Source of the DNA: Gammaproteobacteria bacterium
Lineage (GTDB): Bacteria; Pseudomonadota; Gammaproteobacteria; Ga0077536
NCBI GenBank assembly: GCA_965217605.1
Contig: CBDCJB010000004.1
Span: 8,015-72,014, forward strand
Direction: 5' to 3'
Length of the DNA stretch: 64,000 nt
The translations under genes were made by a program, and so were the position numbers. Shown in pieces: positions 2,438 through 51,378 of this stretch (the stretch's first letter is position 1; every line of letters starts with the position of its first letter). Below the pieces are notes generated by a model. The model worked only from the letters and a program-made list of their open reading frames with translations, was not told the DNA's origin and did no database searches.

Positions 2438-2608
2438 CGGAAGGGTGTTTGTGGTCGGGTCAGAGAGAAAGCCATCGTGGCGTGAAGACAGGTGGTACGC
2501 GCGGGCGGCAAAACGAGATCGACCTCACTACAAGTGGGAAGGGTGACGATTGCCCGCGATCGGCATGGCACCAGTTCGGAGAACCAAGACGTGGAAGGGC
2601 GGGAGAGG

Positions 2609-3715
2609 ATGAGCAACGGCGACCTGAACTGGATCGCGAACTACATCTGGGGCATCGCCGCCGACGTCCTGCGCGACCTCTACGTGCGCGGCAAGTACCG
2701 CGACGTGATCCTGCCCATGACCGTGCTGCGCCGCCTCGACGCGGTGCTGGAGGGCAGCAAGCAGGCGGTCCTCGACATGAAGGCCGCCCTCGATGACGCC
2801 GGCGTGGTCGAGCAGGACGCCGCCCTGCGCCAGGCGGCGGGGCAGGCGTTCTACAACACCTCCCGCTTCACCCTGAGCGACCTGCGCGCCCGCGCCAACC
2901 GCCAGCAGCTCACCGCCGACTTCCAAGCGTACCTCGACGGGTTCTCGCCGAACGTGCAGGACATCCTGGACAACTTCGAGTTCCGCAACCAGATCCAGCG
3001 CCTGTCCCGCGCCGACGCCCTGGGCACCCTGATCGAGAAGCTCACCTCGCCCGACATCAACCTGAGCCCCGCCCCGGTGCATCACGCCGACGGCTCGGTC
3101 AAGCATCCCGGCCTCGACAACCACGGCATGGGCACGATCTTCGAGGAGCTGGTGCGCCGCTTCAACAAGGAGAACAACGAGGAGGCGGGAGAGCACTGGA
3201 CCCCGCGTGACGCGGTCCGGCTGATGGCGAAGCTGGTCTTCCTGCCCATCGCCGACCGGATCAGCTCCGGCACCTATCTGCTGTACGACGGCGCCTGCGG
3301 CACCGGCGGCATGCTGACCGTGGCCGAGGAGACGCTGCGACAGCTCGCCGCCGAGCACGGCAAGGAGGTCGCCACCCACCTGTGCGGACAGGAGATCAAC
3401 GCCGAGACCTACGCCATCTGCAAGGCCGACCTGCTGCTGAAAGGCGAGGGCGAGGCCGCCGACAACATCGTGGGCGGCCCCGAGCACTTCACGCTGTCCA
3501 ACGACGCCTTCCCGTCGCGCGAGTTCGACTTTATGCTGTCCAATCCGCCCTACGGCAAGAGCTGGAAGACCGACCTGGAGCGCATGGGCGGCAAGCGCGA
3601 CATGCGCGACCCCCGTTTCGTGATCGAGCACGCCGGCGACCCCGAGTACTCCCTGGTGACCCGCTCCACCGATATCGTGACAGACGGTCCGAAGGAGGTT
3701 GAACATGACGAGTGA
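2609..3715 (+). pseudogene. hsdM: Type I restriction-modification methyltransferase HsdM, copy 1, 3'-truncated (HsdM_N domain, motif I DGACGTGG, motif IV NPPYGKSW, then ends after ...TRSTD)
   Basis: N-terminus MSNGDLNWIANYIWG...VLPMTVLRRLD is typical of the HsdM N-terminal domain. The gamma-class N6-adenine MTase motifs are present, but only ~55 aa follow NPPY, so the C-terminal part is missing. Confidence 0.8.
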
Positions 3716-3887
3716 CGAAGTAAAACGGTTCGATTGTGTCAGGACCATGAGAGCTATTCGCGACCAAATCAGCGCCGAGATTGCTGAAAAGAGCTTCGCC
3801 GAGCTGTCCCACTGGCTCGATACGCACGGTTACGCGGATCCTGCGCTGCAACGGTTGGCGGAGCGACGCGGCCAACGGAACCCATGA
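3705..3887 (+). CDS. small conserved protein (60 aa, MTSDEVKRFDCVRTMRAIRDQ...WLDTHGYADPALQRLAERRG); first gene of cassette A
   Basis: GGAGG RBS 6 nt upstream of the ATG. Its stop overlaps the ATPase start as ATGA. A homolog sits at the same relative position after hsdM copy 2. Confidence 0.5.
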   Translation: MTSDEVKRFDCVRTMRAIRDQISAEIAEKSFAELSHWLDTHGYADPALQRLAERRGQRNP

Positions 3888-5137
3888 TCACACGCGTCGA
3901 GGCGCTCAATTTCCGCTGTCTGCGGTACGTGCACCGTCCGATGAACCCGTTCCACGTATTGGTCGGCCCGAACGCATCCGGCAAGACGACGTTCCTGGAC
4001 GTCATCGGGCTCCTGGGTGACATCGTGTCAGGCGGGCTGGATTACGCCCTGTCCGAGCGCACACCCAACCCGCAGGATCTGCTGTTCGGACGCCGCGGCA
4101 GCCGACTCGAACTTGCGGTGGAGGCGACCGTGCCCGACGCCCTTCGCCAACCCGATGCGCAGCAGTGGAACACGGTTCGCTATCAGGTGGCGCTCGGTTA
4201 CGATGACACCGACCGCCAGTTTGAGTTCAAGGCTGAGACGCTGCTGTTGAAGAAGGCCACCGAATCCGGGCCGAGTCAGCGCGAATTGTTCCCGACGCCG
4301 CCGGTGCCGCCCGAGTCGCTGTTGGACAGCATCAAGCAGCGCGACAACAAGGTGTTGGTCAACAAGGCGTCGGGCGGCAACGACAACTTCTACAACGAGT
4401 CCAGCCCCGCAAACCGAAGTTGGGCGCCGTCGTTCAAACTCGGAACGCAGCGGTCGGCGCTGGGCAACCTTCCGGCCGACCAAAGCTCGTTTCCGACGGC
4501 GACGTGGTTTCGGGAGTACCTTGGCGCCGGCATTCAGCGGTTCACCCTCAACAGTGCCGCGATCCGGCAGCCGAGTCCGCCGACGCGGGCCGCCGGATTC
4601 CTGCCCGACGGGTCCAACGTCTCCTGGGTCGCCGGCCGCCTCCGGCAAGACGACCCCGCGCGCCACGCTGCGTGGATCGCGCATCTGCGCACGGCGCTGC
4701 CCGACCTGGAAGACATTGAGGCGGTGGAGCGGCCCGAAGACCGCCATTGTTATATGGTGTACCGGTATGTTGGCGGCTTGTCCGTGCCGTCCTGGCTGGT
4801 CTCCGATGGCACGCTCAGGTTGACCGGTCTCACGCTGCCGGCCTATCTGCCCGATCTGGAAGGTGTCTTCCTGGTTGAGGAGCCGGAAAACGGCATCCAC
4901 CCGAAGGCGGTGGCCACGGTGTTCGATTCGCTGTCCTCGGTGTATGGCGCTCAGGTGTTGATGGCGACCCACTCACCGGTCGTGCTCAACGCGGCGAATA
5001 CGGAAGACGTGCTGTGCTTCGCGCGCGACGATGCGGGTGCGACCGACGTCGTCTCTGGTACCGAACATCCTCACCTGCAAGCTTGGCGGGGCGATGCGGA
5101 CCTCGGCACCCTGCTTGCGGCCGGCGTACTGGGATGA
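3884..5137 (+). CDS. AAA_15/AAA_21-type ABC ATPase (OLD/RloA/AbiLi-like): Walker A GPNASGKTT, Walker B VFLVEEPENGIHP, H-loop ATHSP
   Basis: Motifs were read directly from the translation. The gene is translationally coupled to both neighbours through ATGA overlaps. Confidence 0.8.
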   Translation: MITRVEALNFRCLRYVHRPMNPFHVLVGPNASGKTTFLDVIGLLGDIVSGGLDYALSERTPNPQDLLFGRRGSRLELAVEATVPDALRQPDAQQWNTVRYQVALGYDDTDRQFEFKAETLLLKKATESGPSQRELFPTPPVPPESLLDSIKQRDNKVLVNKASGGNDNFYNESSPANRSWAPSFKLGTQRSALGNLPADQSSFPTATWFREYLGAGIQRFTLNSAAIRQPSPPTRAAGFLPDGSNVSWVAGRLRQDDPARHAAWIAHLRTALPDLEDIEAVERPEDRHCYMVYRYVGGLSVPSWLVSDGTLRLTGLTLPAYLPDLEGVFLVEEPENGIHPKAVATVFDSLSSVYGAQVLMATHSPVVLNAANTEDVLCFARDDAGATDVVSGTEHPHLQAWRGDADLGTLLAAGVLG

Positions 5138-5583
5138 CCCGCCGGGACCTCGTGGTCCTTGCCGCCGACAAGGACTTGGAACACGCGTTGCGCGGGTTGC
5201 TGTCCCGTCACGAGTCGCTGCCCATCCGGCAGATCGTGTTCGATATCTTCGTACACCCCGAGCATGACGCCGCTTGTGCGAGGCGTGGCGTTTCGTTCCT
5301 CTCCCCGCTTTCCCAGCGGTACCGATACGCACTGCTGATCATGGATCACGAAGGCAGTGGCCGCGAGAAGATATCAGCAGATGACTTGCAGGAAGCGCTG
5401 AATCAAGAATTTCGGGTATCCGCATGGGGCGAGCGGGGCAAGGCAATCGTCCTGGACCCGGAGCTGGAGATCTGGGTCTGGAGCGACTCCCCACACGTCG
5501 ACGCCGTGGCCGGTTGGGCAGATAGAAGGCCGCGGCTGCGCCAGTGGCTGAACGATCATGGTCTGTGGGATGACCAAGAGTAG
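5134..5583 (+). CDS. small partner protein of the AAA ATPase (149 aa), DUF4276/RloB-like
   Basis: Start overlaps the ATPase stop (ATGA). Its size and position match the two-gene ATPase + DUF4276/RloB modules found in R-M-linked and abortive-infection loci. The family assignment is from memory, not from a search. Confidence 0.5.
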   Translation: MTRRDLVVLAADKDLEHALRGLLSRHESLPIRQIVFDIFVHPEHDAACARRGVSFLSPLSQRYRYALLIMDHEGSGREKISADDLQEALNQEFRVSAWGERGKAIVLDPELEIWVWSDSPHVDAVAGWADRRPRLRQWLNDHGLWDDQE

Positions 5584-5721
5584 AAACCACGGCGGCCAAA
5601 GGAGGCGTTTCATGCCGCCCTGCATGCGTCGGGTGTGGCGCGCAGCGCATCGCTCTACCAACAGCTCGCCGAACGAGTATCCCTCAACCGGTGCGGCGAT
5701 CGTTCCTGAATCAGCGCCAAC

Positions 5722-6378
5722 ATGAGCAAAGGCGACCTCAACTGGATCGCGAACTACATCTGGGGCTTTGCCGACGATGTCCTCCGCGACCTCTACGTGC
5801 GCGGGAAGTACCGCGACGTGATCCTGCCCATGACCGTGCTGCGCCGCCTCGACGCGGTGCTGGAGGGCAGCAAGCAGGCGGTCCTGGACATGAAGGCCAC
5901 CCTCGACGACGCCGCCGTGGTCGAGCAGGACGCCGCCCTGCGCCAGGCGGCTGGGCAGGCGTTCTACAACACCTCCCGCTTCACCCTGAGCGACCTGCGA
6001 GCCCGCGCCAACCGCCAGCAGCTCACCGCCGACTTCCAGGCGTACCTCGACGGGTTCTTCCCCAACGTGCAGGACATCCTCGACAACTTCGAGTTCCGCA
6101 ACCAGATCCCGCGCCTGTCCCGTGCCGACGCCCTGGGCACCCTGATCGAGAAGCTCACCGCACCCGACATCAACCTGAGCCCCACCCCGGTGCACCCCGC
6201 CGAGGGCTCGGTCAAGCATCCCGGCCTCGACGACCACGGCATGGGGACGATCTTCGAGGAGCTGGTGCGCCGCTTCAACGAGGAGAACAACGAGGAGGCG
6301 GGCGAGCACTGCGCCCCGCGCGACGCGGTCCGACTGACTGATGCCAGTGACGTACCGGCTCCGATACGAGGGAGGTAG
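5722..6378 (+). pseudogene. hsdM: hsdM copy 2, truncated after ~205 aa (HsdM_N domain only)
   Basis: ~93% nucleotide identity to copy 1 from 15 bp upstream of the ATG. It diverges at ...EHCAPRDAVRL and then reads into the RBS of the next small gene. Confidence 0.8.
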
Positions 6379-6382
6379 GAAC

Positions 6383-6685
6383 ATGACGACCACGCGAGAG
6401 AAGAAAGGATTCGACTGCGTGAAGACCACGCGCGAGATTCGTGATGGCCTCAGTGTCGAGTTGGCCGGGATGTCCCCTGAGGACCGGATCCGGTGGCTCA
6501 ATAGCAGGGGTTTCTCGGACCCGCTCCTGCGCCGCCTCGTCAATCGGCTGCGGCCACAGGAAGGTCGAGAGGGCGAGTCCGCTCTGGTGCGCTCGACCGG
6601 CAGCCCCTTGCCCCGACGCGATTCCGTCCGCCGCCCGCCAGGAAGCGAACGATCACGACCACGGAGGACTGACGGCATATCGTGA
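6383..6685 (+). CDS. small protein homologous to 3705-3887 (MTTTREKKGFDCVKTTREIRDGLSVELAGMSPEDRIRWLNSRGFSDPLLRRL...), with a longer Arg/Pro-rich tail
   Basis: GGAGGGAGG RBS. ~40% aa identity to the cassette-A small protein over the first 60 aa (shared KxFDCVxTxRxIRD...WL...G..DP.L.RL pattern). Confidence 0.45.
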   Translation: MTTTREKKGFDCVKTTREIRDGLSVELAGMSPEDRIRWLNSRGFSDPLLRRLVNRLRPQEGREGESALVRSTGSPLPRRDSVRRPPGSERSRPRRTDGIS

Positions 6686-6719
6686 AGCCCGCAAGGAAGA
6701 CGAAGTGACAACTGCCAAC

Positions 6720-7040
6720 TCAATCCCTCTTCCACCAAGAAGCCAAGTCGTACTGGTTCTGCAGGTCCAGCCAGAAGCGAGGGCTGTTGCCAAAGTAACG
6801 GCCAAGCCGCAGCGCCGTGTCAGCGGTGATCGACCGGCGTCCGTTCAGGATGTCGGTGATGCGACCGGACGGAACGCCAAGGTCAAGTGCCAGTCTGTTG
6901 GCCCTCAGGCGGCGGGCTTCGAGCTCGCGCTTGAGCAATCGGCCAGGATGCGAAGTCGGATCCACTTTCGTAACCTCCCTACATACCACGAGGCCCGGTG
7001 AACACCGTAACCCATCAGCGGCAGGCAGCCGGTTGACCAA
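6720..7040 (-). CDS. higA: HigA-family (XRE-type HTH) antitoxin-like protein; TTG start in the ORF track, true start possibly at the internal VTKVD
   Basis: ...HPGRLLKRELEARRLRANRLALDLGVPSGRITDILNGRRSITADTALRLGRYFGNSPRFWLDLQNQYDL matches the HigA antidote signature. No intact HigB partner upstream. Confidence 0.7.
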   Translation of the reverse strand: MVNRLPAADGLRCSPGLVVCREVTKVDPTSHPGRLLKRELEARRLRANRLALDLGVPSGRITDILNGRRSITADTALRLGRYFGNSPRFWLDLQNQYDLASWWKRD

Positions 7041-7176
7041 CCAGCCAGCCGCCCCCGCCGGTCGTAGAAGATGGCAGGTTGAAACGAACTACGCGGCGTG
7101 TGCGTGTGCACGGACGGGCCGCAGCCGCGGTTGCTGTCGGTCCGCGGTCTGGACACGGGGGCGGCCACCGAATTGA

Positions 7177-8037
7177 ATGAGCGCCAACATGAGCAACGGC
7201 GACCTGAACTGGATCGCGAACTACATCTGGGGCATCGCCGACGACGTCCTGCGCGATCTGTACGTGCGCGGCAAGTACCGCGACGTGATCCTGCCCATGA
7301 CCGTGCTGCGCCGCCTCGACGCGGTGCTGGAGGGCAGCAAGCAGGCCGTCCTCGACATGAAGGCCACCCTCGACGATGCCGGCGTGGTCGAGCAGGACCC
7401 CGCCCTGCGCCAGGCGGCGGGACAGGCGTTCTATAACATCTCCGGATTCACCCTCCGCGACCTGCGCGCCCGCGCCAACCGCCAGCAGCTCACTGCCGAC
7501 TTCCAGGCATACCTCGACGGGTTCTCGCCCAACGTGCAGGACATCCTCGAAAACTTCGAGTTCCGCAACCAGATCCCGCGCCTGTCCCGCGCTGACGCCC
7601 TGGGCACCCTGATCGAGAAGCTCACCTCGCCGGACATCAACCTGAGCCCCGCCCCGGTGCACCACGCCGACGGCTCGGTCAAGCATCCCGGCCTCGACAA
7701 CCACGGCATGGGCACGATCTTCGAGGAGCTGGTGCGCCGCTTCAACGAGGAGAACAACGAGGAGGCGGGCGAGCACTGGACGCCGCGCGACGCCGTCCGG
7801 CTGATGGCGAAGCTGGTCTTCCTGCCGATCGCCGACCAGGTCAGGTCCGGCACCTACCTGCTGTACGACGGCGCCTGCGGCACCGGCGGCATGCTGACCG
7901 TGGCCGAGGAGACCCTGCGGCAGCTCGCCCGCGAGCACGGCAAGGAGGTCGCCACCCACCTGTACGGCCAGGACATCAACGCCGAGAGCGCGGCCACCAT
8001 CTGTTGGAGCTGTACGATGGGCTTGAAGCGACGATAA
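7177..8037 (+). pseudogene. hsdM: hsdM copy 3, truncated after ~265 aa (HsdM_N + motif I), then unrelated sequence
   Basis: ~95% aa identity to copy 1 up to ...HLYGQDINAES (~7985), then divergence and a stop. Confidence 0.8.
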
Positions 8038-8306
8038 AAGCCGAGGCGCAGCAGTCGATTTCCGAGTTGCCGCCCTTGGGCGCGCCGAGTTGGATTGGCG
8101 AGGATCCGGACATTCGAGCATTGATAAGACAAGGAAACTCGAATTTTTCTGATTGGAGATATCTGCCCGAAAGACCACGTGTCGAGAGCGGTGTACCAAA
8201 GGTGCTGGTCAACGTCGTACAGGTGATGCAGAAGCTTTGTCTCAAGCGCGTTTTGCAATCTCCGGATGTCGCGAATGAAAAGCAAGATGGCGGAGAGTCC
8301 CCCTAG
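8004..8306 (+). CDS. gene fragment or short ORF of unknown origin, directly fused downstream of hsdM copy 3
   Basis: Open frame (TTG start) from the copy-3 junction. It is lower GC than hsdM and has no recognizable domain. Confidence 0.2.
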   Translation: MELYDGLEATIKAEAQQSISELPPLGAPSWIGEDPDIRALIRQGNSNFSDWRYLPERPRVESGVPKVLVNVVQVMQKLCLKRVLQSPDVANEKQDGGESP

Positions 8307-8384: not shown

Positions 8385-9686
8385 TCAGTCTCGATCGGGG
8401 CAGTCACGGTAGAAGTTCATGAGAGGTTCAAAGAGGTCCAACGTACGGGTGGACAGATACATGAACTGCAGTTCACGACTGTCTAGATCGACGTTACCAC
8501 GGGGCACGTGAAAAACGGACTTGCGAAGAGACTTGAGCGCTGCAAAATCGGGCTCGGACTCTATGAAAGCATCCAGTGCCGGGATTCGCAACGACGGCGC
8601 CTTTTTCATGGCCTGCTTATACAGCCTCAGCGGCTCATGTAACAATGCGAGGGTCACGCCCAGCAACGCTTGTTGGTTGTGATGCTCCTGTTCCGTTTTT
8701 GGAATGGTGTCGGCACGAAAGAACTGTTCGATATCGATTGACGTATCCTTGGATGGATCAACAGGACAGGCAAGTAACTTCTCAGGATCAATGTAGGAAG
8801 TGAATTCGTTATAGAATGCCAGTGCGCGCATGATCATCTGGACGCAACCCCGTTTTGCTTGTCTTATGCTGTCCGGGTAAAGCGTTCCGCGTCGACCGGA
8901 GTCGTTTGTTGCTGATGATTGTGAGGACCGTATTGGCTCCAGCGCGAAGAATTGAATTTGACTGGGGTTGCCGCGCAGATCCGAGGGATTGGGCCAGTGC
9001 GGCAATGGTCGATGGCAAATCCCTTTGGCGATTCGGTTGAGCTTCTCGATTCGACTGAAGCGTCTTGACTCCAGAGCCCTGCTAGCGATTTCCTTATCGC
9101 CTTCGGTAATGAAGTACGAGCCCATCGAATACCAGAATCTGACAGTATGGGCATCTATCAGGAATTGTGCGTCGAAAATCAGTTTTGTCAGGGCTTCGCG
9201 CTGTCGGTCCTCAGAAGAAAAGATTCCGTCGAGAGCGTCCTGGAATGAAGTGCGGTTTTGGGGGTGAAGTACGCTATCTCTCAACTCTCGCAAGTGCGCC
9301 AAGAAATCCTTGTTGCAGTTCAAGAAATCGGCCAGGGGTGCGTATCTGAAGTTGGAATTCCGCTTAACCAATCTCCTGTATGCCTCCAGTTCTTCGTGCA
9401 GCAGACACAGGTAGACGTCCAAGAGGCTGTCGATGAATATGCGGTGCATGTCGCGGCAGATGCCGGTGAGGTCCGCTTCTATGACTGACCTCGAATGTGT
9501 GGTGTATTTTTGACTGAACAGACCGACCGCTCCGGGGTCGATGATGGAGTTCGAGTCAGTCTCTTCCGAACTTCCCAGGTTGCGCAGGACGGCGTGGCGG
9601 ACGCCTTCGAGGACAAGGCATCGATGGTAGTGGATGTTGCAGCAGTGGTGCACTGCAATGGTTTCGGATTTCTTGTCGACGGGCAT
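8385..9686 (-). CDS. hypothetical protein (433 aa), lower GC. An overlapping upstream ORF (9556-10056) in another frame may be a 5' extension across a frameshift
   Basis: Long ORF with protein-like composition. I recognise no domain. Confidence 0.5.
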   Translation of the reverse strand: MPVDKKSETIAVHHCCNIHYHRCLVLEGVRHAVLRNLGSSEETDSNSIIDPGAVGLFSQKYTTHSRSVIEADLTGICRDMHRIFIDSLLDVYLCLLHEELEAYRRLVKRNSNFRYAPLADFLNCNKDFLAHLRELRDSVLHPQNRTSFQDALDGIFSSEDRQREALTKLIFDAQFLIDAHTVRFWYSMGSYFITEGDKEIASRALESRRFSRIEKLNRIAKGICHRPLPHWPNPSDLRGNPSQIQFFALEPIRSSQSSATNDSGRRGTLYPDSIRQAKRGCVQMIMRALAFYNEFTSYIDPEKLLACPVDPSKDTSIDIEQFFRADTIPKTEQEHHNQQALLGVTLALLHEPLRLYKQAMKKAPSLRIPALDAFIESEPDFAALKSLRKSVFHVPRGNVDLDSRELQFMYLSTRTLDLFEPLMNFYRDCPDRD

Positions 9687-10221: not shown

Positions 10222-11841
10222 CTAGCCCGGATATTTCATAAAAAAAGAGGGCAAGCCCTTTCTAATCCGTTATAATTCAGTTAGTTAGGCTGAAAACGGA
10301 AAGGACTCGCCCGTGACAGAATGTACCCAGACTGCGCTGCAATTTCCAGGCTTTTCTCGCCGCAAGATCGACGTCTCATTCAACGGCGGTGACATCACTT
10401 CCAACGGTGGGGTGCAGTTGCTGCGCTGGGCCGATGAACGGACCGGGTTGATCAAGGCCGCGGCACGGGCCATTGGGGATTCGCGCCGGAGAAAGAGCTG
10501 CACCCACGCTCTGGAGTCGCTGGTCCGACAGCGGGTCTATGGCCTTTCCCTGGGCTATGAGGACCTCAACGACCACGAGGCATTGCGCGCGGACTTGGCT
10601 CTGCAGACGGCGCTTTCCCGGGATGAGTCGCTGGCGAGCCCGTCGACGTTGTGCCGACTGGAGAACCGCGCGAACCGGAACACCGCGGTGGCCCTGCACA
10701 AGGGACTCATTGATAACTTTATCGCCGCTTACAAACAAGCGCCCCGACGACTGATACGCGATGTGGATGCCACCGACGATCGGGTGCAGGGTGATCAAGC
10801 GGGCCGCTTCTTCCACGGCGACTACGACCACGACTGCTGTCTGCCCTTGTACGTGTTCTGTGGCGATCAACGGTTGGTCAGTTATCTGCGTTCGAGCAAG
10901 ATCGACGGCGCAAAACACAGTGGGGCGATCTTGGCGCTGTTGATCAAACGGTTGCGCCAGGCGTGGCCGAAGGTCGAGATCCTGGTGCGCGCCGATGCCG
11001 GCTTTTGCCGCTGGCGGATGCTGCGCTGGTTCGATCGCCACGGCGTGGATTACGTCATGGGTATCGCGAAAAACCCGCGTTTGCACGATCAATCGTTAGC
11101 GTTGCGCACGTTGGCTCAGTGGCGGTATTGGATGATGGGTGAGAAGCAGCGCCTGTTCAGCGAGGTCCGTTACGCCGCACCGACTTGGGATACCCCGCGA
11201 CGGGTGATCGTCAAGGCCGAGCACAGCGCCCGCGGCAGCAATCCCCGCTTCGTGGTGACCCACCTCACCGGCAAGGCCCAACGCATCTACGACCGCCTCT
11301 ACTGCGCCCGCGGCGAGATGGAGAACCGGATCAAGGAGCAGCAGTTGGGCCTGTTTGCCGATCGCACCAGTTGCCACACCTGGTGGGCCAATCAGTTCCG
11401 GCTGTTGCTCTCAAGCTTGGCTTACACGCTGTTGGAGACGATCCGCCGGGTGGCACTACACGCAACGGCACGGGCTCGCGCGCAAGGCGGCACGCTGCGC
11501 CTGAAACTATTACGCATCGGCGCCATCGTCTTGCGCAATACCAGGCGCATCCGACTGTTGCTCTCCAGTGCTTACCCCCATCGAGAACTGTTCTGCCTGG
11601 TGGCCGCTCGCCTCAAGCCGGGATAGTCGTCCCAACGCCAGTCGCCTCGTGTGCGATTCCTTGTGAGTCGGGGTGTCGCTCGCCTCCGAAACGACTCGTG
11701 CATCGCAATCGGCGATAAATCCACCGGTGGCGCGCCGAAACGTCGCGCTCAAGCGCCGCTTCGTGCCACCACCAACGAATTCCGACCCATGATCGACCAA
11801 CTCCACGCACAATCTCACTGCTCATGCAATATCCGGGCTAG
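10222..11841 (+). mobile_element. IS1380/IS4-superfamily-like insertion sequence, copy A (1612-bp core flanked by CTAG on both sides; termini CCCGGATATT(T/G)CAT)
   Basis: Identical to copies at 16467-18086 and 48237-49808. All three are flanked by CTAG, so a 4-bp CTAG target duplication. It interrupts the IS256 tnp ORF in frame (GV|LGPLVK). Confidence 0.85.
10313..11626 (+). CDS. DDE transposase (437 aa) of the IS1380-like element
   Basis: GTG start. The C-terminal YCARGEMENRIKEQQLGLFADRTSCHTWWANQFRLLLSSLAYTL block is typical of IS4-superfamily (IS1380/IS701-like) transposases. Confidence 0.85.
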   Translation: MTECTQTALQFPGFSRRKIDVSFNGGDITSNGGVQLLRWADERTGLIKAAARAIGDSRRRKSCTHALESLVRQRVYGLSLGYEDLNDHEALRADLALQTALSRDESLASPSTLCRLENRANRNTAVALHKGLIDNFIAAYKQAPRRLIRDVDATDDRVQGDQAGRFFHGDYDHDCCLPLYVFCGDQRLVSYLRSSKIDGAKHSGAILALLIKRLRQAWPKVEILVRADAGFCRWRMLRWFDRHGVDYVMGIAKNPRLHDQSLALRTLAQWRYWMMGEKQRLFSEVRYAAPTWDTPRRVIVKAEHSARGSNPRFVVTHLTGKAQRIYDRLYCARGEMENRIKEQQLGLFADRTSCHTWWANQFRLLLSSLAYTLLETIRRVALHATARARAQGGTLRLKLLRIGAIVLRNTRRIRLLLSSAYPHRELFCLVAARLKPG

Positions 11842-11849
11842 GCCCGCTG

Positions 11850-12308: not shown

Positions 12309-13801
12309 ATGTATTCTGTGGATTTATACAGCCGGGTGCGGCGTGCGTGCCATGTTGAAGGGATGAGCAAGAGCGCGGCGGCGCGCCAGTTTGGGATCGA
12401 TCGCAAGACAGTCGCGAAGATGCTGGAGCACGCGGTTGCGCCTGGATACCGCCGGACGGGCCCTCCGGTGCGGCCCAAGCTTGACCCGTTCATTCCGATC
12501 ATCGACCAGATCCTCGAAGAGGACAAAGGCCGGCTGAAGAAGCAACGGCACACCGCGAAGCGGATCTTCGAGCGCCTGCGGGACGAACACGGCTTCACCG
12601 GTGGGGTCACGTCACGGATTACGTACGTGTGAAGAAGCGCCAGATCGGGAGGTCTTCGTGCCGCTGACGCACGCGCCGGGCCATGCCCAGGTGGACTTCG
12701 GCGAGGCGCTTGGTGTGATCGGCGGCGTGCAGCGCAAGCTGCACTATGTTGCGATGGTAGTGCCGCAGTCGGATGCCTTCTTCATCAAAGCGTATCCTGC
12801 CGAGACGGCCGAAGCTTTCTGCGACGGGCATGTCTCGGCGGTTGCGTTTTTTGGCGGTGTGCCGCTATCGGTACTCTACGACAACACCACCATCGCGGTT
12901 GCGAAGATCCTTGGCGACGGTACTCGCAAGCGCACCAGCGTTTTTTCCGAGTTGCAGTCGCACGACCTGTTCGAGGATCGGTTCGGCCGGCCGGGCAAGG
13001 GCAACGACAAGGGGTCGGTGGAGGGGGTGATCGGCTTTGCCCGGCGGAACTTCCTGGTCCCGATGCCCCGCTTCGAGAGCTTCGAGGCGCTGAATGCTTG
13101 GCTGGAGGTACAGTGCCTCAAGCGCCAGAGCGAGGTGCTGCGCGGGCACAGCGAGATGATCGGCGAACGCTTACTGCACGACCTGGATGCCCTGATGGCG
13201 TTACCAGCCGTCTGCTACGACGCTTGCGAGAGAGTCAGCACCCGGGCCACGTCGATCTCGATGGTGCGCGACCGCGGCAGCGACGACTCGGTGCCAGTCG
13301 CCTACGCCCATCACGAGGTTCAGGTTCGAGGCTATGTCGACAAGGTCGTCATCGGCTGCGGAGCTGAGGTGGTCGCGCGGCACCGCCGATCCTACGAGAA
13401 GGCTGACATGGTCTTCGATCCTATGCACTTCCTGCCGCTCCTGGAGCAGAAGGTCGGCGCACTCGACGGCCTGGCCGTTGCAGGGCTGGGCGTTGCCCGG
13501 GGAGTTCGCCACGCTGCGCCGGTTGCTCGAGGCGCGGATGGATAAGCGGGGCAAACGCGAATACGTTCAGGTGCTTCGGCTTCTCGAGACCTTCGAAATG
13601 GACCCTGTCCAAGGCGCCGTCAGGCCGGCGCTCGATCGCGGTGCGATCGGCTACGACGCAGTCAAACACCTGGTGCTGTGCCGGGTTGAGCGGCGCCCGC
13701 CGCGGCTCGATCTCGACATCTATCCCGACCTGCCCCGAGCAAGAGTAGAAACCACGAAGCCGGCCAGCTACATGAGCCTGATGCCGGGAGCGGCGGTATG
13801 A
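12309..13801 (+). pseudogene. istA: IS21 transposase IstA, at least two frameshifts (segments 12309-12632, 12601-13545, 13334-13801)
   Basis: HTH N-terminus, DDE core and C-terminus appear in three different frames. Confidence 0.8.
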
Positions 13802-14550
13802 GTGACACACCACAAGTGCTGCTGCACCACCACCTCAAGAAGCTCCGCCTGCCCACCTTCCACAGCGAATACGCCAAACTTGCCCGGCCATGTGCGGCCG
13901 AGGGCAACGATCACGTGCAGTATCTTCTCCGGCTCTGCGAACTGGAGCTGATCGAGCGCGAGCGGCGGATGGTCGAACGGCGCATTAAAGCCGCGAAGTT
14001 CCCGGCAACAAAGAGCCTGGATAGCTTCGACTTCAAGGCCATCCCGTCGCTCAACAAGGCACTGACGATGGAACTGGCCCGCTGCGAGTTCGTCAATCGG
14101 CGTGAGAACGTCATCGCCCTGGGCCCGAGCGGCACCGGCAAGACCCACGTTGCCCTCGGCCTGGGACTGGCAGCCTGCCAGAAGGGTCTGAAGGTCTGCT
14201 TCACAATCGCGGCTGCACTTGTGCACGAACTGATCGAAGCCGCAGACGCGCGCCGCCTGCAGCGCCTTCACAAGCAGCTTGCCAGCCAGGATCTGCTCAT
14301 CATCGATGAACTCGGCTTCGTACCTCTGTCAAAGACGGGGGCCGAACTGCTCTTCGAGATCATCTCCCAGAGCTACGAACGCGGCTCGATCATCATCACG
14401 TCCAACCTGCCGTTCGACGAATGGACCGAGGTCTTCGGATCGGAACGCCTCACAGGCGCCATTCTCGACCGCCTGACACACCACGTACACATCCTCGAAA
14501 TGAACGGCGAGAGCTTCCGGATGCGCCAAAGCCGCAAGACCAGAACCTGA
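13798..14550 (+). CDS. istB: IS21 helper ATPase IstB (Walker A GPSGTGKTH)
   Basis: Full-length, canonical IstB sequence. Start overlaps the istA end. Confidence 0.9.
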   Translation: MSDTPQVLLHHHLKKLRLPTFHSEYAKLARPCAAEGNDHVQYLLRLCELELIERERRMVERRIKAAKFPATKSLDSFDFKAIPSLNKALTMELARCEFVNRRENVIALGPSGTGKTHVALGLGLAACQKGLKVCFTIAAALVHELIEAADARRLQRLHKQLASQDLLIIDELGFVPLSKTGAELLFEIISQSYERGSIIITSNLPFDEWTEVFGSERLTGAILDRLTHHVHILEMNGESFRMRQSRKTRT

Positions 14551-16466: not shown

Positions 16467-18086
16467 CTAGCCCGGATATTTCATAAAAAAAGAGGGCAAG
16501 CCCTTTCTAATCCGTTATAATTCAGTTAGTTAGGCTGAAAACGGAAAGGACTCGCCCGTGACAGAATGTACCCAGACTGCGCTGCAATTTCCAGGCTTTT
16601 CTCGCCGCAAGATCGACGTCTCATTCAACGGCGGTGACATCACTTCCAACGGTGGGGTGCAGTTGCTGCGCTGGGCCGATGAACGGACCGGGTTGATCAA
16701 GGCCGCGGCACGGGCCATTGGGGATTCGCGCCGGAGAAAGAGCTGCACCCACGCTCTGGAGTCGCTGGTCCGACAGCGGGTCTATGGCCTTTCCCTGGGC
16801 TATGAGGACCTCAACGACCACGAGGCATTGCGCGCGGACTTGGCTCTGCAGACGGCGCTTTCCCGGGATGCGTCGCTGGCGAGCCCGTCGACGTTGTGCC
16901 GACTGGAGAACCGCGCGAACCGGAACACCGCGGTGGCCCTGCACAAGGGACTCATTGATAACTTTATCGCCGCTTACAAACAAGCGCCCCGACGACTGAT
17001 ACGCGATGTGGATGCCACCGACGATCGGGTGCAGGGTGATCAAGCGGGCCGCTTCTTCCACGGCGACTACGACCACGACTGCTGTCTGCCCTTGTACGTG
17101 TTCTGTGGCGATCAACGGTTGGTCAGTTATCTGCGTTCGAGCAAGATCGACGGCGCAAAACACAGTGGGGCGATCTTGGCGCTGTTGATCAAACGGTTGC
17201 GCCAGGCGTGGCCGAAGGTCGAGATCCTGGTGCGCGCCGATGCCGGCTTTTGCCGCTGGCGGATGCTGCGCTGGTTCGATCGCCACGGCGTGGATTACGT
17301 CATGGGTATCGCGAAAAACCCGCGTTTGCACGATCAATCGTTAGCGTTGCGCACGTTGGCTCAGTGGCGGTATTGGATGATGGGTGAGAAGCAGCGCCTG
17401 TTCAGCGAGGTCCGTTACGCCGCACCGACTTGGGATACCCCGCGACGGGTGATCGTCAAGGCCGAGCACAGCGCCCGCGGCAGCAATCCCCGCTTCGTGG
17501 TGACCCACCTCACCGGCAAGGCCCAACGCATCTACGACCGCCTCTACTGCGCCCGCGGCGAGATGGAGAACCGGATCAAGGAGCAGCAGTTGGGCCTGTT
17601 TGCCGATCGCACCAGTTGCCACACCTGGTGGGCCAATCAGTTCCGGCTGTTGCTCTCAAGCTTGGCTTACACGCTGTTGGAGACGATCCGCCGGGTGGCA
17701 CTACACGCAACGGCACGGGCTCGCGCGCAAGGCGGCACGCTGCGCCTGAAACTATTACGCATCGGCGCCATCGTCTTGCGCAATACCAGGCGCATCCGAC
17801 TGTTGCTCTCCAGTGCTTACCCCCATCGAGAACTGTTCTGCCTGGTGGCCGCTCGCCTCAAGCCGGGATAGTCGTCCCAACGCCAGTCGCCTCGTGTGCG
17901 ATTCCTTGTGAGTCGGGGTGTCGCTCGCCTCCGAAACGACTCGTGCATCGCAATCGGCGATAAATCCACCGGTGGCGCGCCGAAACGTCGTGCTCAAGCG
18001 CCGCTTCGTGCCACCACCAACGAATTCCGACCCATGATCGACCAACTCCATGCACAATCTCACTGCTCATGCAATATCCGGGCTAG
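16467..18086 (+). mobile_element. IS1380-like IS, copy B (identical length to copy A, CTAG flanks)
   Basis: Sequence identity with 10222-11841 through both termini. Confidence 0.85.
16558..17871 (+). CDS. DDE transposase of IS1380-like copy B (437 aa)
   Basis: Near-identical to 10313-11626. Confidence 0.85.
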   Translation: MTECTQTALQFPGFSRRKIDVSFNGGDITSNGGVQLLRWADERTGLIKAAARAIGDSRRRKSCTHALESLVRQRVYGLSLGYEDLNDHEALRADLALQTALSRDASLASPSTLCRLENRANRNTAVALHKGLIDNFIAAYKQAPRRLIRDVDATDDRVQGDQAGRFFHGDYDHDCCLPLYVFCGDQRLVSYLRSSKIDGAKHSGAILALLIKRLRQAWPKVEILVRADAGFCRWRMLRWFDRHGVDYVMGIAKNPRLHDQSLALRTLAQWRYWMMGEKQRLFSEVRYAAPTWDTPRRVIVKAEHSARGSNPRFVVTHLTGKAQRIYDRLYCARGEMENRIKEQQLGLFADRTSCHTWWANQFRLLLSSLAYTLLETIRRVALHATARARAQGGTLRLKLLRIGAIVLRNTRRIRLLLSSAYPHRELFCLVAARLKPG

Positions 18087-18243
18087 GCCCTCACCATGCC
18101 CCTGTGTTCGGTCGGGTCCACGTCCTTGCTGCCGCGCGTTGGTATGCGGCGCACGGATATTAGGATCGTACTTACAGAAGCCGATCGGGAAGGCCGGGCC
18201 CTAAAATCGGCCTATTCGGGCCGGTCTGTCTCAGATACTGCTA

Positions 18244-23518: not shown

Positions 23519-23783
23519 ATGTCCCGCCGAACGAAATTGACTCGCGAACGGATCGAGACGCTGGCCGGATATGTGGCGAACGGCTGCACGAACCGCGACG
23601 CGGCGCGACTGAGCGGGATCGCGGAATCCACCCTTTACCATTGGCTTGGCATTGCACGAGAGCATGAGCACGAGGGGCGGACCCGGACGCTGCCGGTTCA
23701 ACTGGCGCGCGCTGGAAGAAGCCGAGGCCGGATTCCGCCGAGCGCAGCTTGAGGTTATCCGGCGGGCGGCGTCGGAATCGACT
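23519..23783 (+). pseudogene. phage-related HTH protein fragment (terminase small subunit-like: MSRRTKLTRERIETLAGYVANGCTNRDAARLSGIAESTLYHWL...), frameshifted and 3'-truncated by IS3
   Basis: HTH pattern typical of small terminase or Nu1-like N-termini. The coding sequence runs into the truncated IS3 copy at ~23784. Confidence 0.3.
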
Positions 23784-24472
23784 GTTCAGCGCCAACGTGA
23801 TCAGGCGGTCTCGCACGGTATCGGGGATCCGGTTCCACACCCGCCCCGGCAGGGGCGCTTGGTCCTGCAGCGCCACTTCTCCGTCATGACGATAGTGTGC
23901 GTACCAACGGTAGAAGGTGGTGCGTGGAACGCCCAACATAGCCAGGGTTTGCTTGGCCGGCAGGTGCGATCGCTCCACCAACCGAATGATCTCAAGCTTC
24001 TCGGCGGCTGAATACCTCATTGCAGGTCGTCCCCATCCCCGAGCCTGTTTTTTTTGAGCAGCCGCAGTTCCAGCGTTTGCTCGGCGACCACTTCCTTGAG
24101 ATCTCGGGCGTCACGCCGAAGCGCCGTGACGTCACTGGTGTTGGCCTGGCGAACAAGGTCCCCGGCCAGGCGCTGCTTGCCGGCTTCCATGAAGTCCTTG
24201 GACCCTTTGTAATATAGGCTTTGAGCAATACCTTCTCGTCGGCACAGCTCCGCCATGCTGGCTTCGCCACGCACGCCGTCCACTACGATGCGTATTTTCT
24301 CCTCCGCACTGGTTTGCTTGCGCGTGTTGCGCTTGATGTCACGAATGATTTTTTCTAACGACGACGTTCGTCCTGTCGGTCTCTGTTTCATCTCAACTCC
24401 TCAGGTTAGGATGAACAAAAACTCTCCCTTAAACCAGCGCTATATCTGTCCCATAGGCGCTGACGGCATACA
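23784..24472 (-). mobile_element. IS3-family element, copy 1, truncated: orfA plus the first ~80 codons of orfB; left terminus TGTATGCCGTCAGCGCC (RC) at 24472
   Basis: Identical to the complete copy at 49809-51378 down to position 23784. Confidence 0.8.
24017..24391 (-). CDS. IS3-family transposase OrfA (HTH)
   Basis: MKQRPTGRTSS...EEKIRIVVDGVRGEASMAELCRREGIAQSLYYKG... ATGA overlap with orfB. Confidence 0.85.
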   Translation of the reverse strand: MKQRPTGRTSSLEKIIRDIKRNTRKQTSAEEKIRIVVDGVRGEASMAELCRREGIAQSLYYKGSKDFMEAGKQRLAGDLVRQANTSDVTALRRDARDLKEVVAEQTLELRLLKKNRLGDGDDLQ

Positions 24473-25789: not shown

Positions 25790-25865
25790 TGGCTCCCCGG
25801 GACGGGCTCGAACCGCCGACCTAGTGATTAACAGTCACCCGCTCTACCAACTGAGCTACCGGGGA
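25790..25865 (-). tRNA. tRNA-Asn (GTT)
   Basis: Cloverleaf read on the minus strand: UCCCCGG acceptor, anticodon loop CUGUUAAUC, TPsiC GGTTCGAGC, 3' CCA. Confidence 0.9.
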
Positions 25866-40977: not shown

Positions 40978-41125
<148 letters not shown>

Positions 41126-41240
41126 GAAAGGATGCGAACCTATCCCGAGGTTCACAAAATCGCCGGGAGCGATTTTGAACAACGCCGGCCGTAGGGCGGC
41201 GTTGGCCCTGAAGGGGCGAATTACAGGGATGTAATTCGTA

Positions 41241-48236: not shown

Positions 48237-49808
48237 CTAGCCCGGATATTTCATAAAAAAAGAGGGCAAGCCCTTTCTAATCCGTTATAATTCAGTTAGT
48301 TAGGCTGAAAACGGAAAGGACTCGCCCGTGACAGAATGTACCCAGACTGCGCTGCAATTTCCAGGCTTTTCTCGCCGCAAGATCGACGTCTCATTCAACG
48401 GCGGTGACATCACTTCCAACGGTGGGGTGCAGTTGCTGCGCTGGGCCGATGAACGGACCGGGTTGATCAAGGCCGCGGCACGGGCCATTGGGGATTCTCG
48501 CCGGAGAAAGAGCTGCACCTACGCTCTGGAGTCGCTGGTCCGACAGCGGGTCTATGGCCTTTCCCTGGGCTATGAGGACCTCAACGACCACGAGGCATTG
48601 CGCGCGGACTTGGCTCTGCAGACGGCGCTTTCCCGGGATGAGTCGCTGGCGAGCCCGTCGACGTTGTGCCGACTGGAGAACCGCGCGAACCGGAACACCG
48701 CGGTGGCCCTGCACAAGGTACTCATCGATGTGGATGCCACGGACGATCGGGTGCATGGTGATCAAGCGGGCCGCTTCTTCCACGGCTACTACGACCACTA
48801 CTGCTGTCTGCCCTTGTACGTGTTCTGTGGCGATCAACGGTTGGTCAGTTATCTGCGTTCGAGCAAGATCGACGGCGCAAAACACAGTGGGGCGATCTTG
48901 GCGCTGTTGATCAAACGGTTGCGCCAGGCGTGGCCGAAGGTCGAGATCCTGGTGCGCGCCGATGCCGGCTTTTGCCGCTGGCGGATGCTGCGCTGGTTCG
49001 ATCGCCACGGCGTGGATTACGTCATGGGTATCGCGAAAAACCCGCGTTTGCACGATCAATCGTTAGCGTTGCGCACGTTGGCTCAGTGGCGGTATTGGAT
49101 GATGGGTGAGAAGCAGCGCCTGTTCAGCGAGGTCCGTTACGCCGCACCGACTTGGGATACCCCGCGACGGGTGATCGTCAAGGCCGAGCATAGCGCCCGC
49201 GGCAGCAATCCCCGCTTCGTGGTGACCCACCTCACCGGCAAGGCCCAACGCATCTACGACCGCCTCTACTGCGCCCGCGGCGAGATGGAGAACCGGATCA
49301 AGGAGCAGCAGTTGGGCCTGTTTGCCGATCGCACCAGTTGCCACACCTGGTGGGCCAATCAGTTCCGGCTGTTGCTCTCAAGCTTGGCTTACACGCTGTT
49401 GGAGACGATCCGCCGGGTGGCACTACACGGAACGGCACGGGCTCGCGCGCAAGGCGGCACGCTGCGCCTGAAACTATTACGCATCGGCGCCATCGTCTTG
49501 CGCAATACCAGGCGCATCCGACTGTTGCTCTCCAGTGCTTACCCCAATCGAGAACTGTTCTGCCTGGTGGCCGCTCGCCTCAAGCCGGGATAGTCGTCCC
49601 AACGCCAGTCGCCTCGTGTTCGATTCCTTGTGAGTCGGGGTGTCGCTCGCCTCCGAAACGACTCGTGCATCGCAATCGGCGATAAATCCACCGGTGGCGC
49701 GCCGAAACGTCGCGCTCAAGCGCCGCTTCGTGCCACCACCAACGAATTCCGACCCATGATCGACCAACTCCACGCCCAATCTCACTGCTCATGCAATATC
49801 CGGGCTAG
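48237..49808 (+). mobile_element. IS1380-like IS, copy C, with a 48-bp in-frame internal deletion; CTAG flanks
   Basis: Same termini as copies A and B. The transposase is 421 instead of 437 aa and lacks GLIDNFIAAYKQAPRRLIRD. Confidence 0.85.
48328..49593 (+). CDS. DDE transposase of IS1380-like copy C (421 aa, internal 16-aa deletion)
   Basis: Alignment to copies A and B. Confidence 0.8.
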   Translation: MTECTQTALQFPGFSRRKIDVSFNGGDITSNGGVQLLRWADERTGLIKAAARAIGDSRRRKSCTYALESLVRQRVYGLSLGYEDLNDHEALRADLALQTALSRDESLASPSTLCRLENRANRNTAVALHKVLIDVDATDDRVHGDQAGRFFHGYYDHYCCLPLYVFCGDQRLVSYLRSSKIDGAKHSGAILALLIKRLRQAWPKVEILVRADAGFCRWRMLRWFDRHGVDYVMGIAKNPRLHDQSLALRTLAQWRYWMMGEKQRLFSEVRYAAPTWDTPRRVIVKAEHSARGSNPRFVVTHLTGKAQRIYDRLYCARGEMENRIKEQQLGLFADRTSCHTWWANQFRLLLSSLAYTLLETIRRVALHGTARARAQGGTLRLKLLRIGAIVLRNTRRIRLLLSSAYPNRELFCLVAARLKPG

Positions 49809-49945: not shown

Positions 49946-50926
49946 TTACGCAGCGTGTCGTTGATAGTGCAAACGACGTTTCGCGATAGTCTTTCGTTTG
50001 ATCCTTTCTCGTTTTGCCAAAATAGATTGCCCGCGCCCGAAGTAAACGTCGGCTGGCGTCAGGTTTTTCAAGCGCTCATGGGTTCGCTGATGATTGTAGT
50101 GATCGACGAACCGCTCGATCTGCTGTTTCAGATCGCCGGGCAAGAAGTCATTCTCCAGTAGTATCCGGTTCTTCAGCGTCTGGTGCCAGCGTTCGATCTT
50201 GCCTTGTGTCTGCGGATGGTACGGTGCACCGCGAACGTGGCTCATCCCATTGTCGCTGAGCCAATCAGCAAGGTCGCTCGAGAGGTAACTTGAGCCATTG
50301 TCGGAGAGTAATCTCGGCTTTTGCACGACGTCGGCCTGGTCGCAACCCGAGGCCTGCAAGGCAAGTTCCAGGGTCTCGGCCACATCCCGGCTGGTCATGG
50401 TCGTACACAGCTTCCAGGCCACGACATAGCGTGAAAAGTCATCCCGTATCGTGGATAGAACCATCCAGCCCCAGCCAATGATCTTCAGGTAGGTAAAATC
50501 CGTCTGCCACTGCTGATTGATGGCCGTGGTCTTGTCTGTGAACTCGCTGGCGGCCTTCATGACGATGAAGGCCGGACTGGTGATCAGAGCGTGGGCTTTG
50601 AGAAGCCGGTAAACCGAGCTTTCCGAGACAAAATAGCCCTCGGTATCGGTGAAGGTAACCGCCAACTCGCGCGGACTCAGTTCCGGCCTGTTCAGCGCCA
50701 ACGTGATCAGGCGGTCTCGCACGGTATCGGGGATCCGGTTCCACACCCGCCCCGGCAGGGGCGCTTGGTCCTGCAGCGCCACTTCTCCGTCATGACGATA
50801 GTGTGCGTACCAACGGTAGAAGGTGGTGCGTGGAACGCCCAACATAGCCAGGGTTTGCTTGGCCGGCAGGTGCGATCGCTCCACCAACCGAATGATCTCA
50901 AGCTTCTCGGCGGCTGAATACCTCAT
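49946..50926 (-). CDS. IS3-family transposase OrfB (DDE integrase core, 326 aa)
   Basis: DFTYLK...LLSDNGSSYLS...YHPQTQGKIERWHQTLK. Confidence 0.9.
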   Translation of the reverse strand: MRYSAAEKLEIIRLVERSHLPAKQTLAMLGVPRTTFYRWYAHYRHDGEVALQDQAPLPGRVWNRIPDTVRDRLITLALNRPELSPRELAVTFTDTEGYFVSESSVYRLLKAHALITSPAFIVMKAASEFTDKTTAINQQWQTDFTYLKIIGWGWMVLSTIRDDFSRYVVAWKLCTTMTSRDVAETLELALQASGCDQADVVQKPRLLSDNGSSYLSSDLADWLSDNGMSHVRGAPYHPQTQGKIERWHQTLKNRILLENDFLPGDLKQQIERFVDHYNHQRTHERLKNLTPADVYFGRGQSILAKRERIKRKTIAKRRLHYQRHAA

Positions 50927-51297: not shown

Positions 51298-51378
51298 CTC
51301 AACTCCTCAGGTTAGGATGAACAAAAACTCTCCCTTAAACCAGCGCTATATCTGTCCCATAGGCGCTGACGGCATACA

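Follow-up and report, generated by a model that had tools for sequence, protein, structure and literature searches.

The stretch analyzed here is a 64-kb piece of a gammaproteobacterial genome (assembly GCA_965217605.1, contig CBDCJB010000004.1, positions 8,015 to 72,014 of the forward strand), and this whole piece is called the window. Close to its start lies a 5.4-kb segment (2609–7987), the array, which holds three copies of the 5′ part of hsdM, the methyltransferase gene of Type I restriction-modification (R-M) systems, with other defense genes between them. The array is probably a relic made up of the eroded front ends of three operons from one very conserved and horizontally mobile Type I R-M family. 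The window retains no functional Type I system, and what remains is a decaying relic of a defense island, with no working device for the exchange of cassettes. The parts of the array are all of known kinds, namely Type I HsdM, an embedded ATPase–TOPRIM pair (MAD3/MAD4, also HEC-01), HigA, and a PIN module. From left to right, the features are the following:

2609–3673, plus strand: hsdM copy 1, codons 1–355, with HsdM_N and the first half of N6_Mtase, including NPPY.
3674–3715, plus strand: junction J1, where hsdM codon 355 is followed in frame by the final ~13 codons of a PIN gene.
3705–3887, plus strand: small open reading frame (ORF) s1, 60 amino acids, of an uncharacterized family found after the PIN gene in intact operons.
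3884–5137, plus strand: ABC/AAA_21 ATPase, MAD3-like (HEC-01A-like), an intact ORF.
5134–5706, plus strand: MAD4-like gene (DUF4276/TOPRIM partner), disabled by a stop at 5581–5583 and the loss of its 3′ end.
5707–6337, plus strand: hsdM copy 2, from −15 to codon 205 (gene part from 5722), with HsdM_N.
6338–6382, plus strand: junction J2, what is left of a PIN tail, in the native PIN frame and interrupted there by a premature stop.
6383–6685, plus strand: small ORF s2, 47% identical to s1, with family homology up to about 6562.
6720–7040, minus strand: HigA-family antitoxin (TIGR02607, 82.8 bits against a cut-off of 47.7; Pfam HTH_3).
6981–7188, plus strand: native upstream region of copy 3, whose homologs in the related loci L082 and L085 precede their intact hsdM.
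7189–7987, plus strand: hsdM copy 3, codons 1–266; with its upstream bases, the repeat runs from 7174.
7988–8306, plus strand: breakpoint J3 and the remnant of a resident gene, the C-terminal 100 codons (8004–8306) of a 192-amino-acid gene.

The three hsdM copies lie in direct orientation and show no insertions or deletions relative to each other (self-BLAST and in-register alignment). Copy 1 (2609–3407) is 94.7% identical to copy 3 (7189–7987) over 799 nucleotides and 94.3% identical to copy 2 (5722–6337) over 616 nucleotides, while copies 2 and 3 are 93.0% identical over 631 nucleotides that include the 15 upstream of the ATG. The original prediction, a reading of the sequence alone, had described such direct copies, and they are borne out as 93–95% identical and ungapped. 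It had also placed the start of every copy about 15 bp upstream of the ATG, which is right for copies 2 and 3 but not for copy 1; this copy has an upstream region of its own, differs at −15, and shares the repeat from the ATG only. In the same way, the ends that it gave for copies 2 and 3 (codons 205 and 266) stand, and the 395 codons that it gave for copy 1 do not. Homology to full-length HsdM stops at codon 355 in copy 1 (position 3673), at codon 205 in copy 2, and at about codon 266 in copy 3. The ORF of copy 1 reaches 3715 because it reads through into the 13-codon PIN remnant.

All three fragments are members of the Type I HsdM family. When one genome per species was scanned, 570 relatives of hsdM came up, the best 80 of which were used as family loci (L002–L081, with hsdM at about position 10001 in each), and the fragments are 82–91% identical to the full-length HsdM proteins of these 80 loci. 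For example, copy 1 has 89% amino acid identity to residues 4–357 of the full-length HsdM of L004. Domain and system calls (Pfam, NCBIfam, and PADLOC) agree: Pfam finds HsdM_N and N6_Mtase in copies 1 and 3 and HsdM_N in copy 2, and PADLOC calls copy 1 MTase_I (PDLC03029, 390 bits). The fragments were also considered as MAD2 and rejected, as they and their full-length relatives score 20–45 bits against an NCBIfam cut-off of 720. None of them is a complete HsdM, since they have 355, 205, and 266 codons compared to 659–674 amino acids in intact relatives. For this genome, every statement made here on the presence or absence of hsdM, hsdS, and hsdR refers to the 64 kb of the window. In it, tblastn with a full-length HsdM found no further hsdM sequence, and the HsdS and HsdR proteins of L082 had no match, in keeping with the prediction that both genes are missing. 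The large ORFs of the window are housekeeping or insertion sequence (IS) genes. For annotation, this means that none of the three “hsdM” calls in the window is a functional methyltransferase.

The history of the array can be traced through its relatives. These were found by a protein search for near-identical copies of MAD3, and their contigs were then compared. One of them, L082, is (like L086) an independent metagenome contig from a sample other than that of the window. It is colinear with the window, with an identity of 97.2% over 3245–5707, 95.8% over 5707–6979, and 93.3% over 6981–7987. Complete MAD4 (211 amino acids), copy 2 (at 12062–12689 in L082), s2, and HigA are all present. The third hsdM of L082 is full length (659 amino acids) and is followed by hsdS (466 amino acids) and hsdR, so copy 3 of the window is the positional counterpart of an intact gene that heads an hsdM-hsdS-hsdR operon. 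The last ~46 nucleotides of the region upstream of copy 3 also match the L082 region upstream of copy 2. After MAD4, L082 carries the first ~36 codons of an hsdS, a stub that is joined to the upstream region of copy 2. Unit A (copy 1 to MAD4) is therefore the remnant of an entire operon, hsdM-PIN-s1-MAD3-MAD4-hsdS. Copy 1 of L082 has itself decayed, having lost its first 212 codons and acquired one stop and 1-nucleotide insertions or deletions.

Set against L082, the window carries a nonsense codon in MAD4 and a 238-nucleotide deletion, and it lacks a 1173-nucleotide insert. The deletion took the end of MAD4 and the hsdS stub, and it extends through the sequence ahead of copy 2 as far as −15. 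The sharp “−15/−17 boundary” of copy 2, which could be mistaken for the border of a repeat, is really the edge of this deletion. The 1173-nucleotide insert (L082 13333–14505) lies between HigA and a HigB-like N-terminal ORF, is absent from L085 as well, and carries two minus-strand ORFs of 162 and 122 amino acids whose function is unassigned.

Other relatives have lost other parts. In L085 and L086, copy 2 is deleted, and the new joins lie in purine-rich, GGAGG-like stretches, which are ribosome-binding sites and the EENNEE-coding stretch of hsdM. To judge from these sequences, the joins look like the product of microhomology-mediated deletion. In the more distant L084, the first unit has an hsdM with residues 303–425 internally deleted, followed by an intact PIN gene and an s2-like ORF. 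Further on, there are a 44-amino-acid scrap of the hsdM C terminus, a MAD3 broken at codon 387, and an operon of the cyclic oligonucleotide-based antiphage signaling system (CBASS) on the opposite strand, in the place that MAD4, copy 2, and HigA take in the window. L084 also ends in an intact hsdM-hsdS-hsdR operon. Altogether, at least two hsdM pieces in direct order occur in four related loci (the window, L082, L084, and L086), and it is unusual to see hsdM front ends stacked in direct orientation ahead of an intact operon: a second hsdM piece within 10 kb was found in none of the 80 other family loci. Where close relatives differ, it is mostly by additional deletions with joins in short GGAGG-like microhomologies.

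The junctions after copies 1 and 2 tell how the hsdM genes lost their 3′ halves. In the PIN frame, the bases between copy 1 and s1 read TDIVTDGPKEVEHDE and a stop, and those between copy 2 and s2 read DASDVPAPIRGR, a stop, and EHDD; native PIN tails end in DIRTPEEVVHD and a stop. J1 and J2 are thus internal in-frame deletions that run from inside hsdM to ~13 codons before the end of PIN, and neither of them is a foreign cassette inserted into hsdM. At J1, the stop codon of the PIN remnant overlaps the start of s1. The J1 segment is 100% identical in L082 and also present in L086, and J2 is 100% identical in L082. A comparison of junctions across relatives had been called for by the original prediction, which held that shared, stable pseudogenes without cassette variation would speak against its own proposal, and this is largely what the comparison gave. 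The shared junctions mark the fragments as inherited pseudogenes, with most differences between close relatives being deletions. The third hsdM of L086 (9500–9540) is cut 11 nucleotides from the point at which copy 1 of the window is cut (3660–3680), the two ending in …CGCTCCAGCGACGGCCAG and …CGCTCCA, respectively; this could be a local hotspot of breakage or a coincidence.

The PIN gene and the small ORF are part of a wider pattern in the family. The gene order of intact relatives is hsdM (often fused to PIN), the small ORF, optional embedded defense genes, hsdS, and hsdR. PIN is fused to or follows hsdM in 10 of the 80 family loci, and in all 10 the small ORF starts on the PIN stop, which makes PIN and the small ORF a two-gene module embedded after hsdM. 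Several loci repeat the module, with PIN remnants of 13, 25, or 40 codons ahead of extra small ORFs (L048 12429–14472; L025 4895–5634, likewise L058; L026 12432–13465), and L012 has an equivalent in-frame fusion with PIN deleted. A 90% identical copy of s2 stands ahead of MAD3 in L083 and L084. Among 5.8 billion proteins, just 240 belong to the small ORF family, which has no match in Pfam, NCBIfam, or PADLOC. Its residues F9, R16, D45, and P46 are invariant. It is predicted to fold as a three-helix bundle (predicted local distance difference test score 84), and the predicted model has no neighbor in the PDB. Were PIN a toxin against which its small partner protects, one would expect PIN to be lost repeatedly and the partner to be kept, and in-frame joins would preserve translational coupling into the small ORF. 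Other modules embedded in relatives such as L048 and L001 include GmrSD-like genes, and toxin–antitoxin pairs are also found among them.

The hosts of the 80 loci are spread over more than ten phyla (Latescibacterota, Vicinamibacterales, Entotheonella, Binatia, Chloroflexi, and Gammaproteobacteria, among others). Most are metagenome-assembled genomes with names pointing to common habitats. With a nucleotide identity of up to 90.5% across such distances, the sequences suggest that a single Type I R-M family has spread horizontally, often and in very recent times. In a plasmid search, only single hsdM genes with 71–79% identity were found, and look-ups by exact sequence returned no match to the MAD3 and PheS proteins of the window or to the homologs P0004 and P0121.

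As for the cargo between the copies, the ATPase passes the NCBIfam model antiphage_MADS3 (NF047739, 488 bits against a cut-off of 420), is called HEC-01A and mad3 by PADLOC, and is 99% identical to its counterpart P0001 in L082. The MAD4-like gene reaches 139 bits against the cut-off of 160 for NF047734 and covers profile positions 1–150 of 206; it scores below the cut-off because it is truncated, and it aligns without insertions or deletions to the intact 211-amino-acid gene of L082. The HigA antitoxin has lost its partner. There is no HigB ORF upstream of it in the window, and even the HigB-like N-terminal ORF is seen only in L082, so no intact HigBA pair is present. No MAD5–8 was found among the ORFs tested; MAD6, MAD7, and MAD8 are absent from the array and from the window ORFs scanned with NCBIfam, a scan that did not take in every small ORF. 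A tblastx and blastn comparison of the spacers between the copies with the 80 family loci gave noise only, and the upstream regions of the copies share just a leader of about 20 nucleotides with L035, L047, and L069. A scan for sigma-70-like promoters and terminators was blank. No recombinase was found in the first 10 kb (1–10 kb), and self-comparison gave no inverted repeats. The borders of the array are truncated genes joined at short microhomologies, unlike the cassettes of an integron or shufflon.

On the right, the array ends at a break that is private to this strain. Three sister contigs (L087, L088, and L089) match the window at 99.4–100% from exactly base 7988 rightward and do not match it to the left. 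They carry the same 433-amino-acid protein, exactly identical, as the window has at 8385–9686, and next to a TIR-domain gene they have the complete 192-amino-acid ORF. J3 is therefore a recent illegitimate join at 7987/7988 that cut both hsdM, at codon 266, and the resident gene. The TIR-domain protein of the sisters has 464 amino acids, and its gene is missing from the window strain together with half of the 192-amino-acid gene. Neither the 433- nor the 192-amino-acid protein matches a known family, and together with the TIR gene they may form an unrecognized defense module.

The array also differs from its surroundings in composition. Its G+C content is 65.6%, compared to 58.9% in core genes and 53–54% in the immediate flanks, and the flanks of L083, L085, and L086 have 64–68%. 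L087 comes from the same sample as L082 (ERZ25067264), which means that the array-bearing lineage and the window organism occur together. This co-occurrence and the contrast in G+C suggest that the array fragment came in by horizontal transfer and through an illegitimate join. The window itself is chromosomal (uvrB, thrS, pheST, glmS, guaAB, and xseA) and carries many IS copies.

Taken together, these observations give the following history. Unit A was once hsdM-PIN-s1-MAD3-MAD4-hsdS, unit B an operon that began hsdM-PIN-s2, and unit C a divergent HigBA pair followed by hsdM-hsdS-hsdR, the operon that is still intact in L082. Related operons would have arrived one after another, each by a homologous join in the conserved hsd genes on one side and an illegitimate join on the other, and each arrival would have left the front end of the older operon upstream. 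This specific route of stacking is itself less likely than not. In units A and B, an in-frame deletion removed almost the whole PIN gene along with the 3′ half of hsdM and left a shortened hsdM, a PIN tail, and the small ORF; both deletions are older than the split from L082 and L086. MAD4 carries a stop and HigB is gone, with MAD3, s1, s2, and HigA still open. The fragment may then have reached a gammaproteobacterium of lower G+C from a higher-G+C donor in the same community.

The hsdM pieces have one more property that any account has to deal with. Their identity to L082 is 93.4% for copy 1, 95.9% for copy 2, and 95.6% for copy 3, compared to 98.5% for MAD3 and 98.1% for MAD4. They are therefore 2–4 times more diverged than the adjacent genes, whose baseline synonymous divergence (dS) is about 0.05 (Fisher p of 2.7e-7, 8.6e-4, and 9.4e-5 for the pieces against MAD3/4). 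In copy 2, the divergence is patchy, with 22 of the 25 differences in the first 320 nucleotides (p = 1.5e-4), and the excess is mostly synonymous. The local copies were considered as donors of the extra divergence by gene conversion and rejected, as most of the differing alleles are private. The simplest reading, hinted at by the pattern of the differences, is that the stubs have recombined with other, functional alleles of the hsdM family. Selection acting on the stubs is less likely because the dead copy 1 of L082 shows the same pattern. Such a recombination footprint confined to stubs is unusual.

Several observations do not sit well with a simple relic. For none of the stacking steps could a donor or empty-site pair be found, and stacking itself is a proposed mechanism. 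In four independent cases (J1, J2, L012, and L048), what is left of PIN measures close to 13 codons, and the fusions to PIN tails are in frame in all three readable cases, which random deletion would not predict. The ratio of nonsynonymous to synonymous divergence (dN/dS) between the orthologous truncated copies of the window and L082 is only 0.17–0.21, and the dS of the stubs, at 2–4 times that of MAD3 and MAD4, is unlike plain neutral decay. Also, the direction of transfer is read from G+C and co-occurrence in sample ERZ25067264 only.

An alternative, the active, integrase-free capture of cassettes, is unlikely. In it, circles or fragments with a shortened hsdM and cargo would use the highly conserved hsdM 5′ segment as a mobile arm of homology. 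They would integrate at a resident hsdM by homologous recombination, single or one-sided, which would duplicate the 5′ part and stack new defense cargo upstream of a working operon. The family offers ample homology, at 82–91% of amino acids and up to 90% of nucleotides across many phyla; there are the four loci with direct hsdM pieces, L082 and L084 still ending in an intact operon; CBASS replaces MAD4, copy 2, and HigA in L084; and the excess divergence of the hsdM pieces is patchy and low in dN/dS. In part, the idea of an hsdM hotspot in the original prediction holds up, with distinct alleles, intervening defense modules, different cargo in a relative, and a patchy divergence that fits recombination. 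The insertion of cassettes into one hsdM does not, since each unit is what is left of a whole operon (hence the hsdS stub in L082), cut by internal deletions. J1 and J2 are fixed and common to relatives, the cargo ends in truncated genes such as the hsdS stub and the broken MAD3 of L084, and close relatives differ by microhomology deletions. A specially conserved, att-like arm at the hsdM 5′ end, which the prediction had taken as the recombining sequence, was ruled out: identity stays at 75–90% across the first 1.5 kb without a 5′ peak, so that the 5′ part is no more conserved than the middle or the rest of the gene. The lack of a second hsdM piece in any of the 80 other loci and of an intact hsdM in the window also speaks against active capture. 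Slightly less likely again is a variant in which an hsdM of the same family acts as a landing pad without an integrase, recombining with a near-identical incoming hsdM 5′ part and stacking cargo upstream of a working Type I operon, so that a row of hsdM 5′ stubs is left behind. The stubs would be kept open through coupled translation, and their divergence would be a footprint of recombination with alleles that cross phyla within one community.

It is a little more doubtful still that the truncated ORFs are kept for a function of their own, either as free N-terminal domains of HsdM or as leaders whose translation drives coupled expression of the small ORF and MAD3/MAD4. Neither a stop nor a frameshift interrupts any of the three fragments over their 355, 205, and 266 codons, the PIN-tail fusions keep both the frame and the overlap of stop and start with the small ORF, and dN/dS between orthologs is low. 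However, the broken copy 1 of L082 gives the same low dN/dS next to an intact MAD3 and MAD4, copy 2 is deleted outright in L085 and L086, the dS above that of neighboring genes points to imported variation and not to selection in place, and the scan gave no sigma-70-like promoter. A local tandem triplication with gene conversion from a master copy is very improbable; the prediction had raised such conversion, from an intact hsdM elsewhere in the genome. The copies are in direct orientation, and each resembles the other two more closely than it does any locus of GTDB (best match 90.5%). Between copies, though, dS is 0.15–0.21 compared to the baseline of about 0.05 to L082, dN/dS is 0.13–0.22 and within the family distribution (median 0.146, 1946 pairs), and the differences are evenly spread, with no long identical tracts. 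Together, these values argue against a recent local triplication and against homogenization by a master copy. Each copy also has a positional ortholog in L082, and their downstream partners differ. The three copies are distinct alleles gathered at one locus, with no local triplication. Finally, the prediction had named an assembly artifact, from a collapsed or expanded repeat, as a risk. Repeats in an IS-rich region are all that speaks for it, and its probability is negligible: the 5–7% of differences between copies allows unambiguous assembly, J1 and J2 are seen again in assemblies made independently from other samples (both in L082, J1 in L086), and the right side of J3 matches the three sister contigs exactly from 7988. 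The relic of three stacked operons thus remains the preferred reading.

Known systems offer partial parallels. In the immigration control region of Escherichia coli, related restriction loci are swapped via conserved flanks, giving different contents at one site. The replacement in the window appears to have been one-sided and incomplete, in that the old hsdM front ends stay as a stack of direct repeats. Phase-variable hsdS shufflons, as in Mycoplasma pulmonis and Streptococcus pneumoniae, have inverted hsdS repeats and usually a site-specific recombinase. The window resembles them in having several partial hsd copies at one locus and differs in that its repeats are direct pieces of the hsdM 5′ end, with no inverted repeats and no recombinase nearby; the prediction was correct that this is not the architecture of hsdS shuffling. 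Homology-facilitated illegitimate recombination, known from naturally transformable bacteria, combines a homologous anchor with a microhomology join. It would yield junctions of truncated genes like those in the window, where it is an inferred mechanism with no anchor or donor pair identified.

The closest contents are found in Type I operons with embedded defense genes. Defense modules embedded in Type I R-M operons, with PrrC as the classic case, have been described as “guilt by embedding” (Payne et al., bioRxiv 10.1101/2024.01.29.577857), and ATPase–TOPRIM pairs are described there as modules that sit within operons of the Hma, BREX, and Type I R-M kinds (bioRxiv 10.1101/2024.01.29.577857). 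The array shares with these the accessory modules between hsdM and hsdS/hsdR (ABC ATPase plus TOPRIM/DUF4276). Unlike them, the window has lost its host operon, stacks three hsdM front ends, and has partly broken modules. MADS has eight genes (mad1–8), of which MAD3 and MAD4 are accessory and not reliably present and MAD6, MAD7, and MAD8 are mandatory in the detection model of its authors (bioRxiv 10.1101/2023.03.30.534895). The window ATPase passes the MAD3 cut-off, as in MADS and in the PADLOC candidate HEC-01, and its partner matches MAD4 in part, below the cut-off. The hsdM pieces, though, fall far short of MAD2 (23 bits against 720), and MAD5–8 are missing among the ORFs tested. HEC-01 gave no protection in the published assay (bioRxiv 10.1101/2024.01.29.577857).

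The array is of interest as a readable fossil record of the turnover of a defense island. Related Type I operons with their own modules pile up, their redundant front ends are trimmed by microhomology deletions, and a dead array fragment can be carried into another genome. Better leads than the array itself are the conservation of the hsdM family across phyla and the uncharacterized pair of PIN and small ORF.

Some further observations concern the rest of the window. To the left of the array, an 811-amino-acid ORF (2–2437, 54% G+C) runs off the window start and is absent from all of the compared relatives; it has a weak match to the N-terminal domain of the VPA1262 family (30 bits against a cut-off of 80). 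A DDE_Tnp_1_4 IS of 1.6 kb is present three times (10222–11845, 16467–18090, and 48237–49808; 96–99.8% identical), along with an IS21-type element (12601–14550), a pair of 691-nucleotide repeats (23782–24472 and 50688–51378), and an rve-type transposase (49946–50926). The guaA gene (52541–53896), which adjoins repeats, apparently lacks its N-terminal ~70 residues. At a tRNA-Asn gene (25790–25865), the variable, IS-rich part of the window (1 to about 25.7 kb) gives way to a conserved core (aminotransferase and uvrB); this border may be the site at which an island integrated. A palindromic stretch of 113 nucleotides (41029–41141) adjoins and overlaps the 3′ end of a tRNA-Pro gene (40978–41054).

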